A stretch of 64,000 nucleotides of DNA from contig JAHLKU010000002.1 in assembly GCA_020444505.1 (NCBI GenBank), forward strand, positions 50,921 through 114,920, written 5' to 3'. A program made the position numbers and the translations under genes. Position 1 is the stretch's first letter. The number at the start of each line of letters is the position of its first letter. Shown piece by piece: positions 11,878-46,743 of the stretch. Below the pieces are notes generated by a model. It worked only from the letters and a program-made list of their open reading frames with translations, made no database searches and was not told where the DNA came from. The stretch is from Actinomycetota bacterium (GTDB lineage: Bacteria; Actinomycetota; Acidimicrobiia; Spongiisociales; UBA11373).

Positions 11878-11907
11878 CACGGCCTCCTCGACAGTTGACA
11901 TGGTTGT

Positions 11908-43550: not shown

Positions 43551-43619
43551 GCGCGCCCGGGCTGCCGGGCGGCGCTGCTGCGAGTAGCGTGCCCGTAGGT
43601 ACCGATGCAAGGGGAGGGC

Positions 43620-44522
43620 ATGGATCGCATCTACCTTCGATGGCTGATCGGCATCGGCACGGCCATCGTCGTGCTGCTGGTGGCGCTCGTGGTGGTGGTG
43701 GCCACGGGCGACGGGACGGACGAGGCCGCGGGGACCACCGAGACGACGGCGACGACCCTGCTGCCCACCACCGTGACCACCGCGCCGGGCACCACCGTGA
43801 CCACGGCGCCGCCGACGACGGTGACCACCGCGCCGCCGACGACGGTGACCACGGCGCCGCCGACCACCACCACGACGCTGCCTCCACCCCCGACCCCGTC
43901 GTGCACCGATGCGGGGCCCATCCCCGGCGGCGCGACGGACGTCAGCACGATGGCGGGCGACTACGACGGGGACGGCTCGGCCGACGAGTTCTCCGCCTAC
44001 CGGCTGGCCGGCTCCTGGTTCCTGTGGGCCCACCTGTCGGACGGCGACTACCGCCTGGTCTCCCCGCTCGATGCGGCGTGGTCGGGCACGTACTGGGACG
44101 GCACCACCCCGACCAACGTGGCGGTCCTCGACGCCAGCCTCCTCGGCGACCCCCGTGAGGTGGCGACGGTGCGCCTGTACGCCGGCCTCGGGCAGCTCTA
44201 CGGCCTGTTCGCGGTGGAGTCGTGCGGCATCGTGCCGATGACCGACGCGGCCGGGGCCATCCCGGGCCTGTACTCGGCGATGGGCCCCAGCCACTCGGAG
44301 TTCCCCGCGTGCATGGAGCCCGACTCCATCGTCCAGCAGATCGAGCTCTCCTGCCCCGGCGGCAGCGACATGGCGTCCTGCGCGGCGATCGATGCCGTCG
44401 TGACCCCCTACGTCGCCACCCGGGACCCGGCGCACCTCTACCTCGACGGCGGCGGGTCGTGGACGGTCACGATCGACCAGGCCCAGTACCAGGTGTTCCT
44501 CGGCTTCAGCTGCCTGGGGTAG
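43620..44522 (+). CDS. membrane-anchored protein with a Thr/Pro-rich tandem-repeat linker
   Basis: Start MDRIYLRWLIG after a GGGGAGGG RBS. One TM, then a TTVTTAPP x4 linker and a Cys-containing C-terminal domain. Confidence 0.65.
   Translation: MDRIYLRWLIGIGTAIVVLLVALVVVVATGDGTDEAAGTTETTATTLLPTTVTTAPGTTVTTAPPTTVTTAPPTTVTTAPPTTTTTLPPPPTPSCTDAGPIPGGATDVSTMAGDYDGDGSADEFSAYRLAGSWFLWAHLSDGDYRLVSPLDAAWSGTYWDGTTPTNVAVLDASLLGDPREVATVRLYAGLGQLYGLFAVESCGIVPMTDAAGAIPGLYSAMGPSHSEFPACMEPDSIVQQIELSCPGGSDMASCAAIDAVVTPYVATRDPAHLYLDGGGSWTVTIDQAQYQVFLGFSCLG
43767..43862 (+). repeat. 4 x 24-bp near-perfect tandem repeat inside the CDS (ACC ACC GTG ACC ACS GCG CCG SSS)
   Basis: Encodes the TTVTTAPP repeats; potential slippage-prone copy-number variation. 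Confidence 0.8.
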
Positions 44523-44569: not shown

Positions 44570-45769
44570 GTGGATCGCGCCGACGCCGACGTCTTCAACC
44601 CTGCCCCCGCCGCGGCGCTGTCGGTGACGATCGCCCTCACCGTCATGAACATGACGCTGATCGTGCCGGTGTTGCCGGACTTCGCAGACCACTTCGGCGT
44701 CAGCCTGGCGGCGGCCGCCGCGATGGTGTCGGTGTTCGCCGGCGGGCGCCTGGTGTTCCGCTTCTGGGGGGGCATCGGCGCCGACCGCTTCGGGGCGCGC
44801 CGCGTGTCGGTCATCGCCACGGTGGTGGTCGGCGCCTGTGCCGCCTGGGCGGCGCTGCTCGACTCGTTCTGGCCGGTGCTGGGGGTGCGGCTGGTGCAGG
44901 GCATGGCGGTGGGGATGATCGGCGTCGCCACCAACCAGTACCTGCTGCGGACCACGCCCCGGCAGCACCTGGGGAGGGCGACGGCGGTGTTCCAGACCGG
45001 GATCGTGGCCGGGGCGTCGGTGGGGCCCCTGGCGGGGGGCGTCCTCGCCGACCTGGGCGGCCTGTGGGCGCCGTTCTGGGCCCAGGCCGTGCTCAGCCTC
45101 GCCCTGGTGCCGGTGATCCTGCTGGTGATGTCGGCGGGGGAGACCGAGGTGCGCACCGTGCGGTCGTCACTCCACATGGCAGGCGCCCTGCTGCGCAGGC
45201 CCGTGTTCCTGGGCGTCATGCTGCTCGGCTTCACGCTGTTCTTCCTGCGGGCCGGCGCCGCCAACGCGTTGCTGCCGGCCTACGGCGACGAGGTGGCCGG
45301 CCTGTCGCCGACGGCGATCGGCTTCGTGGTCAGCGCCGCGACGTTCACGTCGGTGCTGGCGATGATCCCGGCGGGGCGCCTGGTGGATCGCGTGGGCCGC
45401 AAGCCGGTGATGCTGACGGGGGTGGTGGCGGTCACCGCCACGGTGGCGCTGTACGGCACGGTGTCGTCGTTCTGGGGCCTGATCGGTGTCTCCTGCCTGA
45501 CCGGGCTCACGGTGGGTCTGGCGTCCGTGCCGCCGCCGACGATGATCGGCGACCTGGCTCCCCCCGGCAGCGAGGGCATCGCCGCCGGGGTGTTCCGCAT
45601 GTCGTCCGACCTGGGGTGGATCGTCGGGCCGCTCGCGCTGGGAGCGATGGCCGACGCCGGGCGGTGGGGCCTCGGCTTCGTCGTCGCCGGCGTGCCGCTG
45701 CTGGCGGCCGGCGCCCTGTTCCTGGCCGCCCCCGAGACCGGGGAGCGGGCCTCGGCCCGCGGCGGCTAG
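44570..45769 (+). CDS. MFS transporter
   Basis: 12 TM; GTG start; has the MFS loop motif GADRFGARR. Confidence 0.85.
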   Translation: MDRADADVFNPAPAAALSVTIALTVMNMTLIVPVLPDFADHFGVSLAAAAAMVSVFAGGRLVFRFWGGIGADRFGARRVSVIATVVVGACAAWAALLDSFWPVLGVRLVQGMAVGMIGVATNQYLLRTTPRQHLGRATAVFQTGIVAGASVGPLAGGVLADLGGLWAPFWAQAVLSLALVPVILLVMSAGETEVRTVRSSLHMAGALLRRPVFLGVMLLGFTLFFLRAGAANALLPAYGDEVAGLSPTAIGFVVSAATFTSVLAMIPAGRLVDRVGRKPVMLTGVVAVTATVALYGTVSSFWGLIGVSCLTGLTVGLASVPPPTMIGDLAPPGSEGIAAGVFRMSSDLGWIVGPLALGAMADAGRWGLGFVVAGVPLLAAGALFLAAPETGERASARGG

Positions 45770-46317
45770 CGCCCGAGCGCCGCCGCCACCTGTGCGGCGA
45801 TCTCGGCGGGAGTCACGTACATCGACCCGCCGTTCTCGGGAGCGCCGTAGTCACGAATCCAGGCGATCTCGCCGCCGTCCACCAGGACGAAGGTGTGCCC
45901 CGGCTCGCCGGTGGCGACCGCCCACTGCAGGACGTCGTAGGACTCGGACACGGCGTGGTCGGCGTCGGAGAGCATCGGGGTGGACTCCACCCCGTACTGC
46001 CCGGCGGCGGCGTCCTGGACCGCTACCGGGTCGAAGGCGATGCTCACGATGGGGACGCCGAGTGAGGTGTAGGTGCTGTCGTTCTCCAGATCCACGATCT
46101 GTTGGATGCAGGGCGGTCACCCGTCCGCCATGTGGAAGAAGAGCAGCACGGGCCCGTCGCCGTAGTCGGCGAGGGACACGGTGCCGCCGCCGGCGGCCGG
46201 CAGCGCGAAGCCGGGCGCCGGGTTCCCCACGGCGATCTCCGTCCCGCCGCTGCACCCGGCGAGCGAGACCCCGAGCAGCGCCGTGCCCAGCACGGCTGCG
46301 ATCCATCGTCGGCCCAT
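45766..46317 (-). CDS. thioredoxin-fold (TlpA/redoxin-like) lipoprotein with an in-frame TGA at the first Cys of the CxxC motif: candidate selenoprotein (U-P-P-C), or alternatively a nonsense pseudogene
   Basis: Track ORFs 46117..46317 (signal peptide + lipobox, ...PVLLFFHMADG) and 45766..46095 (...GHTFVLVDGGEIAWI..., redoxin-like) are in the same frame. Only TGA 46117..46119 separates them, followed directly by CCG CCC TGC. Start ATG 46317 has an AGGAGG RBS. Confidence 0.5.
46087..46101 (-). promoter_or_regulatory. SECIS-like hairpin 19-33 nt downstream of the in-frame UGA
   Basis: mRNA CAGAUC-GUG-GAUCUG: 6-bp stem with a G/U-containing apical loop about 25 nt from the UGA. This is within the bacterial SECIS spacing range. 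Confidence 0.4.
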
Positions 46318-46374
46318 GGCACCCCTCCTGCACGTCGAACCGGGATCTTGGCAGCGGCGGATCCGGACGGCGTG

Positions 46375-46743
46375 TCAGATCCCCGCGGCCTCCTGCAGCG
46401 CGCGGACGAAGGCCACCAGGTCGGCGACCTGGGCGTCGCTCACGCCGCCGATCGCAGGCATCGGGCCGAAGTCCCAGTGATGAGCGCGTACCCCGTTGCG
46501 GACCGCCAGCCAGAACGACAGGTCGGCGTGATGGCCCGGCGCGTAGATCGCGTCCACCAGCGGCGGCCCGTGGTCGGCGCCCTCGCCCGAAGCACCATGA
46601 CACCCCGCACACCTGGCTTCCCACACGACGGCACCGGCCGCCGGGTCACCTCCGGAGAGGTCGGGCGGCGCGGCGTCGGCGCCCCCGCAGGCGGCAGCCC
46701 CCAGCGCGATCACGATGGCAAGCGCGGCGCGGCGTCGGTCCAC
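46375..46743 (-). CDS. class I c-type cytochrome (lipoprotein)
   Basis: Signal peptide plus lipobox LGAAACGG; haem-binding CAGCH; a distal Met is present. Confidence 0.8.
   Translation of the reverse strand: MDRRRAALAIVIALGAAACGGADAAPPDLSGGDPAAGAVVWEARCAGCHGASGEGADHGPPLVDAIYAPGHHADLSFWLAVRNGVRAHHWDFGPMPAIGGVSDAQVADLVAFVRALQEAAGI

Follow-up and report, generated by a model that had tools for sequence, protein, structure and literature searches.

A predicted selenocysteine-containing redoxin lipoprotein from an actinobacterial genome, and its family of thioredoxin-fold UxxC proteins with a putative link to copper

The 64-kb stretch of DNA analysed here (the window) carries on its minus strand, at 46317..45766, one reading frame of 183 codons closed by a TAG (45768..45766), which is predicted to be the complete coding sequence of a selenoprotein. 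The sole internal stop is a TGA at 46119..46117, the predicted selenocysteine (Sec) codon for residue 67, in the context LLFFHMADG-stop-PPC-IQQIVDLEND. The N-terminal and C-terminal open reading frames that the first-pass annotation had joined therefore do share a frame and are split by this TGA only, and reading through gives FHMADG-U-PPC, with the Sec codon opening a U-P-P-C motif (46119..46108). The N-terminal piece (46317..46120) begins MGRRWIAAVLGTALLGVSLAG-C, a lipoprotein signal peptide of 22 residues (46252..46317) ending in the lipobox L-A-G-C, with Cys22 at 46254..46252. A hydrophobic segment ending in a small residue and Cys is likewise found in 147 of the 152 family members with a complete N-terminus. 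As read from the sequence, an AGGAGG ribosome-binding site (46324..46329) lies 6 nt 5' of the ATG at 46317. With U written as C, the read-through protein matches the Pfam AhpC-TSA domain (4.7e-21; residues 30–153, 45859..46230), a thioredoxin-fold domain of the AhpC/TSA-redoxin type, and also Redoxin (3.7e-16), both matches spanning the stop; the NCBI annotation of the locus consists only of a 109-aa C-terminal piece, MCB2222760.1. As a control for chance, all TGA codons of the window (71.9% GC) flanked in their own frame by open stretches of 40 codons or more on either side were scored, and TGA 46119..46117 ranked first for a two-sided coding-frame signature (GC3 of 0.98 and 0.93), the runner-up being far weaker. 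The scan for TGA codons with coding frame on both sides returned no other selenoprotein gene in the 64-kb window.

The same architecture was observed in 160 retrieved relatives, 80 from genomes (the top-ranking ones among 174) and 80 from metagenomes (the top-ranking ones among more than 480); the homologous codon is TGA in 80 of 80 and 80 of 80, respectively. The 80 genome loci are species representatives from two phyla, Chloroflexota (mainly Anaerolineae) and Actinomycetota (Acidimicrobiia), and complete or near-complete genomes with the TGA form include CP070708.1, CBDCXQ010000001.1, CBDCER010000003.1 and CAWGNX010000002.1. Where public full-length calls show W at the Sec site, the DNA reads TGA. 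Rare Cys homologues carry TGC at the TGA column, namely P0011 (G-C-SPC) and P0094 (G-C-EGC), so that the Cys falls at this column and not elsewhere in the alignment, and in the alignment to ResA the U falls on the first Cys of its CxxC; this bears out the earlier proposal that the UGA takes the place of the first redox Cys in such a motif. Met63, Sec67, Cys70, His141 and Met166 are 100% conserved among 146 distinct members, although the invariance of His141, and that of Asp76/Leu77, is partly by construction, since these residues belonged to the search patterns used to collect the relatives. Reassignment of UGA in the genetic code was also considered and rejected for these genomes, since about half of the family genes (75 of 151) and the cytochrome c gene next to the selenoprotein gene in the window end in a genuine TGA stop.

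Within the codons for Q-I-V-D-L lies a SECIS-like hairpin (46087..46101, minus strand), with the 5' arm CAGAUC at 46101..46096, the loop GUG at 46095..46093 and the 3' arm GAUCUG at 46092..46087. It begins 15 nt past the UGA and spans +19 to +33 (counting the U of UGA as 1), with 21 nt from the UGA to the loop, which is the position originally proposed for it. Across the family the stem has 5–7 bp (six in the window) and the loop is GUN or, in one clade, 5 nt long. The bSECIS model calls for a loop of 3–9 nt, a stem of 4–16 bp, a G in the first two loop positions, 16–37 nt from UGA to loop and a free energy limit of −7.5 kcal/mol (PMC13188914). The hairpin agrees with this model in loop, stem, G position and spacing; in energy, the window copy (−6.3 kcal/mol) and that of locus L012 (−6.9) lie above the limit, and Chloroflexota copies (−9.6 and −11.6/−11.8) lie below it. 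The z-score is −2.67 for the 20-nt window hairpin and +0.22 for a 76-nt fold of the window sequence, and a 40-nt stretch around the hairpin has a different minimum-free-energy fold. Because folding of a single sequence fails to single out the hairpin, comparative analysis was relied on.

This comparison revealed compensatory covariation across the family. Among 145 distinct sequences, pair 34–42 is A-U in 78 and G-C in 67, and pair 33–43 is G-C in 136 and A-U in nine, with neither one-sided changes nor mismatches; together the two pairs account for 76 double-changed cells, and on a rough tree they require at least three and at least four independent double changes. In these sequences 91.7% of the hairpin cells are paired versus 18–39% in slid controls (92–94% versus 10–39% over the two comparisons made), and the observed covariation score was reached by 0 of 500 shuffles. 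Codon usage in 79 genome-derived sequences agrees with this: the hairpin Ile codon is ATC in 68 of 68 (56% in the background), the Asp codon is GAT solely with ATC and GAC solely with GTN, and Leu CTG or TTG pairs one-to-one with Gln CAG or CAA, while the Val in the loop uses four codons freely, its synonymous site being unconstrained. The Cys homologue P0011 still has the hairpin, and in the more distant P0094 a pair is broken (ATC with GAC). Part of the conservation is due to the protein, since the hairpin sits in five nearly invariant codons. A second helix suggested by RNAalifold around the UGA (alignment columns 10–12 with 18–20) was discarded, as it is explained by Gly and Pro codons and is unconserved in the soil clade. 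Rfam gave no match in the window at the gathering threshold, and a permissive search of 45700..46400 gave one chance match (E 4.4); coverage of bacterial SECIS elements in Rfam is poor, and this null is uninformative. Like the fdhF-type SECIS of E. coli and the bSECISearch consensus, the element is a stem-loop directly after the UGA and inside the coding sequence, with G then U opening a small apical loop and with spacing and stem in range. It differs from them in being very short, without a bulged U and embedded in the five invariant codons Q-I/V-V-D-L, and the energy of the window copy is weaker than the limit of the model.

From these sequence comparisons, the gene at 46317..45766 is very probably a genuine selenoprotein gene with UGA 46119..46117 decoded as Sec, in which case SelB with Sec-tRNA(Sec) would bind the hairpin while the ribosome stands at the UGA and would insert Sec. 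Two other explanations of the stop codon have to be weighed. A lone sequence with an in-frame stop, of which NCBI annotates the C-terminal part only, is compatible with a nonsense pseudogene or with a sequencing or assembly error, the TGA being accidental and the gene dead or misread. The TGA is, however, present in two independent SRA assemblies (SRR14069905 and SRR14069912), which answers the concern about sequencing error, and in all 160 relatives from two phyla, which are not one clonal contaminant since their identities are 50–80%. Protein-level conservation acts on both halves, and TGC or TGT (Cys), although one base away, is almost never found in close relatives; an accidental stop is thus extremely improbable. 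The UGA could instead be conserved but not decoded as Sec, either as a leaky stop read by a near-cognate Trp or Cys tRNA or as the boundary between two polypeptides, namely a lipopeptide of 66 aa and a C-terminal domain translated from a new start. In many members an ATG occurs four codons past the TGA and is taken as a start by gene callers, and the window context is UGA-C, a weak termination context. The Sec machinery is also missing from the vicinity: no tRNA-Sec was found by ARAGORN in the 64-kb window, the 80 genome loci and 83 metagenome or other loci, and no selA, selB or selD by tblastn with E. coli SelA, SelB and SelD in the window and the fetched loci (about 1.7 Mb of flanks in all), which means only that these genes are not adjacent. 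Against such a reading, PPC is followed in many members, that of the window included, by Ile, Leu, Asn or Val, and there is therefore no conserved restart codon; no comparable ribosome-binding site precedes GTG 46095, the gene callers' start of the truncated frame, and a restarted product would be without the signal peptide and without half of the thioredoxin-fold active site. The nucleotide 3' of the UGA is unconserved in the soil clade, the hairpin covaries and fits the bSECIS rules for loop, stem and spacing, and TGA is selected over TGY exactly where homologues carry the redox Cys, which is the classical signature of Sec. A conserved UGA that is not decoded as Sec is accordingly regarded as very unlikely. 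Reports from related lineages, namely SelB and a Sec-containing FdhA in Anaerolineales (PMC4959059) and selA, selC and selD in an order of Acidimicrobiia (bioRxiv 10.64898/2026.04.03.716425), would make Sec decoding plausible here by analogy.

The structure of the Cys homologue P0011 was modelled with AlphaFold (pLDDT 88.8, pTM 0.82) and has the motif just ahead of helix 71–82. The family protein thus has a CxxC-type motif at the start of helix 1 of a thioredoxin fold and a predicted extracytoplasmic location, with Sec in place of the first Cys. The top Foldseek matches of the model are 2-Cys peroxiredoxins, with ResA also found (TM ~0.8), and the best match in a sequence search of the PDB is the BCP-type peroxiredoxin 5enu (5.4e-07). 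In the alignment to ResA, U-P-P-C lies over C-E-P-C, column for column, with U at the nucleophilic first Cys. The family shares with ResA of B. subtilis (PDB 1st9, 2h1b) and TlpA of Bradyrhizobium a membrane-anchored extracytoplasmic thioredoxin fold, as predicted here, and the proximity, among relatives, of CcdA/DsbD_TM and of a second TlpA-like redoxin; with TlpA it further shares an association with c-type cytochrome and copper genes. TlpA reduces Sco and CoxB. The tlpA gene of Corynebacterium glutamicum shows a 235-fold induction by copper (PMC3140484). Unlike ResA and TlpA, the family has Sec for Cys, G-U-P-P-C rather than W-C-x-P-C, and a lipoprotein anchor rather than a transmembrane helix, and it differs from ResA in its own invariant residues Met63, His141, Trp132, DYG156–158 and MYV166–168. 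The score against the NCBIfam ResA model NF002854 is 30.4 bits versus a cut-off of 170, and the family protein is therefore not a ResA orthologue. Once exported and lipidated, the protein would sit on the outer face of the cytoplasmic membrane, where U67-x-x-C70 would cycle between selenol/thiol and selenosulfide, with Sec attacking as Cys74 does in ResA.

Immediately upstream of the selenoprotein gene, on the same strand and 57 nt from its start, is a c-type cytochrome gene (46375..46743) of 122 aa with a CAGCH haem motif and a lipoprotein-like N-terminus (PF00034, 2.4e-13), with which it is probably co-transcribed. The first-pass annotation had named a c-type cytochrome lipoprotein as the next gene, which is right as to adjacency and type, but the gene lies upstream and not downstream. 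A cytochrome c just downstream of the selenoprotein gene in eight Chloroflexota loci is related to that of the window (30% identity, E 7e-9), and this recurrence hints at the role in cytochrome c maturation that had also been suggested; however, no ccs, res or ccdA genes lie near the selenoprotein gene within the window, and across the family the strongest recurrent neighbours are copper-handling genes. The neighbours in the window are the cytochrome c, an MFS transporter and a DUF6629 gene, with no copper genes there. Copper genes adjoin the gene in about a third of the family loci, with a CopA-like ATPase in 20 of 78 genome loci, CopZ in 12 and CsoR in 11; among 79 short metagenome loci, CopC-CopD occur in 27 and a second TlpA-like redoxin in 36. 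In many loci the copper genes are directly adjacent and co-oriented, and beside the Cys homologue P0094 are CcdA (DsbD_TM) and a CopY-like repressor. Because CopA/CopZ/CsoR, CopC-CopD, the second TlpA-like redoxin and cytochrome c recur as neighbours, the most likely job of the protein would be linked to copper and haem: it would maintain the Cys ligands of copper or haem proteins in the reduced state during copper stress, or handle Cu(I) directly. That the physiological role is related to copper is given a little less than an even chance.

As to chemistry, we lean with moderate confidence towards a thiol-disulfide (selenosulfide) oxidoreductase rather than a peroxidase. A peroxiredoxin-like Sec enzyme that removes peroxides on the outer side of the membrane would agree with the best Pfam match (AhpC/TSA), with 5enu as the best PDB match by sequence and 2-Cys peroxiredoxins as the top Foldseek matches, and with the existence of Sec-containing peroxiredoxins (PMC13188914). 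The peroxiredoxin signature PxxxTxxC with its peroxidatic Cys is nevertheless not present, for in the alignment to 5enu its Pro and Thr are occupied by Met63 and Sec67, and the Cys alone is kept. The position of the catalytic Arg appears to be taken by the invariant His141, judging from the loop GEPGHTF versus RGxF, and the NCBIfam peroxiredoxin models score far under their cut-offs (35.9 versus 140, and 19.1 versus 270 for PrxU). Known Sec-containing peroxiredoxins carry Sec at the opposite position (TxxU), and the neighbouring genes are of copper and TlpA/CcdA type rather than ahpF or trxB, all of which makes a peroxidase improbable. The proteins could alternatively serve chiefly to bind copper instead of transferring electrons, through a Sco-like or chaperone-like Cu(I) site formed by Sec67, Cys70, His141 and Met63/Met166 and supplied by CopA or CopCD. 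Sco proteins have a thioredoxin fold with two Cys and a His, and both the complete conservation of these five residues and the adjacent, co-oriented copper genes would suit such a site. However, the read-through protein has no match to the Pfam SCO1-SenC domain (PF02630) at E ≤ 0.01, the spacing is UxxC and not CxxxC, the invariance of His141 carries the reservation about the search patterns given above, and the second redoxin and CcdA beside relatives fit an electron-transfer chain; copper binding as the main job is therefore rather unlikely, albeit less so than a peroxidase. The whole explanation preferred here, that of a Sec-UGA redoxin lipoprotein acting as a putative oxidoreductase with a link to copper, is held with good confidence.

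By sequence comparison, the family appears to match no curated selenoprotein model or catalogue representative among those checked. The closest catalogued selenoprotein is the Sec-containing peroxiredoxin WP_011365628.1 (TxxU), with 27% identity over 100 residues (E 1e-9); it and BCP/PrxQ have their fold in common with the family, which, in contrast to them, bears Sec at the other end of the motif, with U for Thr, Cys at the peroxidatic position and Met for the catalytic Pro. The 'Prx-like thiol:disulfide oxidoreductase' family (Kryukov and Gladyshev, 2004), corresponding to 'Prx-like 1' of the GOS study and represented by WP_010940744.1 of Geobacter sulfurreducens, is itself predicted and not experimentally verified. 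PF00578 together with UxxC is the operational definition used for it in the catalogues (PMC13188914, PMC2398784), a loose definition that the present family shares. WP_010940744.1, however, shows no BLASTP similarity at E ≤ 10, and the family it represents differs in being cytoplasmic, in its helical extension at the N-terminus and in its motif, W-U-P-Y-C. The score against the NCBIfam SelL-related model NF040769 is 23.4 versus a cut-off of 120. Two metagenomic thioredoxin-fold selenoproteins of lipoprotein type, the 'Thiol-disulfide isomerase-like protein' MDP6341533.1 and the 'Redoxin family protein' of GOS, likewise have a signal peptide with a lipobox-like Cys, UxxC and a predicted extracytoplasmic redox role, but they bear N-U-G-Q-C and F-U-T-V-C and are of marine origin; MDP6341533.1 gave only a spurious 32-residue match (E 8.7) and the GOS protein no detectable similarity. 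Neither EPGHTF nor QQ[IV]VDL, both motifs of the present family, occurs in the supplementary sequence sets checked from the GOS, Peng 2016 and deep-Sep papers. Identity with the catalogue 'Redoxin family protein' (HEU0032618.1) was considered and dropped, as none of the accessions looked up matched and the sequence under that name in the deep-Sep supplement is dissimilar. The present family is most suitably classed as new within a kind already known, the thioredoxin-fold UxxC selenoproteins, and its tie to copper offers a fresh lead.

In public databases, several hundred members of the family are listed either as 'peroxiredoxin' fragments of 108–116 residues or at full length but with a spurious Trp, and recognition of the Sec codon corrects these annotations. 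The same recognition brings a widespread family into the selenoproteomes of Chloroflexota and Acidimicrobiia, which abound in soil, in groundwater and in activated sludge. The unusually small SECIS-like element within five invariant codons offers a clean natural case of overlapping RNA and protein constraints, and the window hairpin, which fails the usual energy threshold, is well suited to testing SECIS predictors. The repeated position of the gene beside three different copper gene sets suggests that selenium use and extracytoplasmic copper homeostasis are connected, and no connection of this kind was found described in the literature searched. Tentatively, and with less assurance than the general role in copper handling, the family may be the first among selenoproteins to specialise in copper handling, lipid-anchored and acting either through a predicted Cu(I) site of Sec67, Cys70, His141, Met63 and Met166 or by repairing copper-oxidised thiols of cuproprotein or cytochrome partners. 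If true, a copper-dedicated selenoprotein family that is missing from the catalogues checked, and systematically truncated in public annotation, would share operons with CopA/CopZ/CsoR or CopC-CopD genes in Chloroflexota and Acidimicrobiia that abound in soil and wastewater.

The gene under study is carried on the minus strand (46317..45766) as one frame of 183 sense codons ending in TAG, with a single interruption, an in-frame TGA (46119..46117, minus; context ...GPVLLFFHMADG-TGA-PPC-IQQIVDLEND...). An AGGAGG ribosome-binding site (46329..46324, minus) stands ahead of the ATG at 46317, and nothing comparable can be read in the window sequence ahead of the GTG at 46095, from which ORF finders and NCBI call a 109-residue fragment. 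A lipoprotein signal, MGRRWIAAVLGTALLGVSLAG-C, forms the N-terminus, and once Cys is put in for the stop, the Pfam matches run across it (AhpC-TSA, 4.7e-21, residues 30–153; Redoxin, 3.7e-16). When every TGA joining two open stretches in one frame was ranked across the 64-kb window (71.9% GC), this one came first for coding signature on both sides (GC3 0.98 and 0.93). The reading of the frame, the Pfam matches and the GC3 ranking confirm the single TGA-split frame described in the first-pass annotation. The runner-up TGA, at 11896 (+; ...HHGLLDS-stop-HGCRTDYDN...), has a GC3 of 0.77 on both sides and a much weaker signature, and the frame around it is probably not coding.

Judged by the sequences of its relatives, the stop is conserved and no accident. 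When each GTDB species was scanned through one genome, 174 relatives were returned, and in all of the best 80, which were examined, TGA occupies exactly the same codon with both halves in frame. These 80 come from Anaerolineae and other Chloroflexota, Acidimicrobiia and other Actinomycetota, and one contig binned as Methanosarcinales. The last (JAIWHF010000120.1, from a MAG labelled Methanosarcinales archaeon) has a coverage of 0.35x and neighbours resembling those of two Anaerolineales loci (L079 and L082), and is probably a mis-binned bacterial contig. A metagenome scan seeded by Cys-type relatives gave more than 480 further relatives, the best 80 of which, mostly from soil, again have the TGA (80/80) and define a second subclade, YFSMGPG-U-x(G/P)C-MQQVVDLQ. 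The window gene's own sequence, TGA included, is present in two independent SRA assemblies. Cys homologues are rare (P0011, G-C-SPC; P0094, G-C-EGC), and the alignment with such homologues that had been proposed as a check bears the prediction out, with TGC in both at the column of the UGA. Among the 612 relatives from the protein search, nearly all of the best 120 are ORFs of 108–116 residues starting just past the stop, typically with MQQIVDL..., a pattern that reads as the signature of a family tripping every gene caller at one place.

Genome-wide reassignment of UGA can be ruled out because 75 of 151 family genes end at a genuine TGA terminator. The cytochrome gene upstream of the window gene also ends in TGA, and UGA is therefore an ordinary stop in the window organism. 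Trp does stand at the Sec site in four 'full-length' database entries (P0002, P0003, P0010, and P0027); in the one checked in DNA, P0003 (L085:115-645), the gene caller had applied a UGA=Trp code to a short contig, since the DNA reads TGA at this codon. Such entries are a database artefact disguising selenoproteins as ordinary proteins, and the public names that could be retrieved are all of truncated 'peroxiredoxin' or 'redoxin domain-containing protein'.

The SECIS-like hairpin claimed downstream of the UGA is present (CAGAUC-GUG-GAUCUG, 46101..46087, minus; 6 bp, −6.3 kcal/mol) and is conserved by compensatory changes. Taken alone, the window copy is unimpressive, and a different structure has the minimum free energy when 40 or 76 nt around it are folded. 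Across 145 distinct sequences aligned with no gaps, base 1 of the Ile/Val codon and base 3 of the Asp codon are paired as A-U (78) or G-C (67) and in no other way, and Gln base 3 and Leu base 1 as G-C (136) or A-U (9), again with no other combination. Paired cells make up 91.7%, compared with 18–39% when the partner column is slid, none of 500 shuffles gave a covariation score as high, and a rough neighbour-joining tree calls for a minimum of three double changes for one pair and four for the other, all independent. Outside the hairpin, the codon background of the 79 genome-derived genes is 52% GAT for Asp, 56% ATC for Ile and 42% CTG for Leu; within it, Ile is ATC in 68 of 68 cases, Asp is GAT exclusively beside ATC and GAC exclusively beside GTN, Leu is CTG or TTG alone, one-to-one with Gln CAG or CAA, and the Val codon of the loop varies freely (GTG, GTT, GTC, and GTA). 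The conservation is owed in part to the invariant Q-I/V-V-D-L peptide, of which the closer Cys homologue P0011 (L086:279-845) is a reminder, as its complete hairpin persists in an A-U variant (CAA-ATC-GTG-GAT-TTG), which points to a Sec-to-Cys replacement too recent for the SECIS to have been lost. The more distant P0094 combines ATC with GAC, a broken pair. The hairpin conforms to the published bSECIS consensus in its loop, its stem, the G of the loop and the spacing (UGA and loop are 21 nt apart), but the window copy misses the energy rule of −7.5 kcal/mol, which two Chloroflexota copies pass at −9.6 and −11.6 (PMC13188914). A seventh G-C pair is missing in the window copy and the other 26 sequences of its subgroup, the 'Glu-variant'.

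Neither the window nor any of the retrieved flanks encodes a tRNA-Sec, SelA, SelB or SelD, and support for Sec machinery in the family's genomes is at the level of lineage only. SelB is encoded by Anaerolineales single-cell genomes, some of which have a Sec-containing formate dehydrogenase, and by Anaerolinea thermophila (PMC4959059), selC, selA and selD occur in all 84 complete genomes of Actinomarina, class Acidimicrobiia (bioRxiv 10.64898/2026.04.03.716425), and both phyla are among those containing selenoproteins (PMC1794560). The conservation of the TGA, the Cys homologues and the covariation of the hairpin support the interpretation of the UGA as Sec, and the window gene is very probably a genuine selenoprotein gene.

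The nearest solved structures by sequence are all remote: a BCP-type peroxiredoxin (5enu, 5.4e-07), a TlpA-like thioredoxin (2l5o, 1.3e-06) and Bacillus ResA (~1e-05). Aligned with ResA, U-P-P-C lies over C-E-P-C, and U takes the column of the nucleophilic Cys at the N-terminal end, whereas with BCP, U falls on Thr and Met63 on Pro of PxxxTxxC, and the peroxidatic Cys is matched by the second Cys alone. P0011 was modelled with AlphaFold at good confidence (pLDDT 88.8, pTM 0.82) and has the expected fold, matched by Foldseek to 2-Cys peroxiredoxins (TM 0.6–0.77) and ResA (target-normalised TM ~0.8). NCBIfam scores are all far under cut-off (BCP 35.9 vs 140; ResA 30.4 vs 170; SelL-related 23.4 vs 120; PrxU 19.1 vs 270). 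The residues that never vary across 146 distinct full-length sequences of the family are M63, U67, C70, D76, W132, P139, H141, T142, W153, D156, G158, and M166, the invariance of H141 and D76/L77 being partly by construction because both were in the search patterns, and 147 of 152 members carry a lipoprotein-type signal. The protein is most economically read as a predicted extracytoplasmic, lipid-anchored thiol-disulfide oxidoreductase with a selenol nucleophile, and strictly speaking is no peroxiredoxin.

Selenoproteins of the UxxC type with a thioredoxin fold are already well known, and a 2026 catalogue includes, with many others, the classes 'Prx-like thiol:disulfide oxidoreductase' (PF00578; UxxC/UxxU), 'Redoxin family protein' (PF08534; UxxC) and 'Thiol-disulfide isomerase-like protein' (PMC13188914, PMC2398784). 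The loose definition of the first, PF00578 plus UxxC, fits the window gene, but BLASTP similarity to its representative is absent, as it is for the second, and the third gave a spurious short match alone (E 8.7). The closest catalogued selenoprotein compared is a TxxU peroxiredoxin (27% identity), with its Sec at the other end of the motif. The family's invariant motifs EPGHTF, QQIVDL and QQVVDL are absent from the supplementary sequence sets searched of three selenoprotein surveys, GOS (an incomplete set), Peng 2016 and deep-Sep, and 'UPPC' together with 'selenoprotein' has no match in the searchable literature. The family is large and apparently uncatalogued, inside a known kind.

The family gene is often solitary, and three neighbour themes recur. 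A CopA-like HMA-domain P-type ATPase is found within the flank at 20 of 78 genome loci, usually co-oriented with the selenoprotein gene and ending 20–50 nt ahead of its start. Its companions are a CopZ-like HMA protein at 12 loci, a CsoR-like repressor at 11 and a small membrane protein with a SHOCT domain. A conserved operon-like order is seen in Anaerolineae, namely CsoR or CopZ-like HMA, SHOCT membrane protein, HMA P-type ATPase, selenoprotein, then cytochrome c or two response-regulator/GGDEF genes (L051:7515-9941, CopA-like, and the regions upstream in L034 and L024; similarly L008, L020, L023, L029, L055, and L057). In the soil clade, where the median contig is just 3.4 kb, a CopC-CopD fusion of 590–980 residues lies directly upstream in 27 of 79 loci, YcnJ-like and ending at the selenoprotein start in L128:3941-6001, L111:729-3674 and L105:1248-3629, and 36 of the 79 have a second TlpA-like redoxin. 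This second, Cys-containing redoxin comes after the selenoprotein gene (e.g., L090:1873-2778). To one side of the Cys homologue P0094 are a CopY-type repressor with DUF305 and genes for cation efflux; to the other, a second redoxin and CcdA (DsbD_TM). The third theme is a cytochrome c lipoprotein, directly downstream in eight Chloroflexota loci (e.g., L025:2922-3677).

In the window, a small c-type cytochrome (46743..46375, minus; 122 aa, CAGCH motif, lipoprotein-like N-terminus ...LGAAAC) lies immediately upstream of the selenoprotein gene, 57 nt away on the same strand, and does not follow it as first described. It is homologous to the longer Chloroflexota cytochrome c (30% identity, E 7e-9), thus both phyla have the pairing, in opposite gene orders. 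The role in cytochrome maturation proposed earlier is weakly supported: the recurrent cytochrome c neighbour favors it, but no copper or cytochrome-maturation genes are found within 10 kb of the window gene, leaving cytochrome c as the sole visible association. On the other side, a convergent MFS gene (44570-45769, +) overlaps the selenoprotein gene (45766-46317, −) by 4 nt at the 3′ ends, leaving no terminator space between the two, and an MFS gene has the same place and orientation in Acidimicrobiia loci L006, L007, L009, L032, and L037. Downstream, beyond this MFS gene, 43605-44522 (+) encodes a 305-aa predicted membrane-anchored protein with several copies of a Thr/Pro-rich tandem repeat (TTVTTAPP) and no Pfam match on record.

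In Corynebacterium glutamicum, tlpA of the copper-excess stimulon is induced 235-fold, alongside a Cu-ATPase, an HMA protein and a multicopper oxidase, a gene arrangement comparable to that of the family loci (PMC3140484). Because of this parallel and the recurrent copper, redoxin and cytochrome neighbours, the protein would act under copper stress in an extracytoplasmic reducing pathway that protects or matures copper and haem proteins with cysteine ligands; direct binding of Cu(I) by a putative Sec/Cys/His/Met cluster is a live alternative. Another thioredoxin-fold UxxC selenoprotein will be no surprise to the specialist; what is new is how large the family is, how systematically it is mis-annotated, the minimal SECIS embedded in its codons and the copper context that recurs around its genes.
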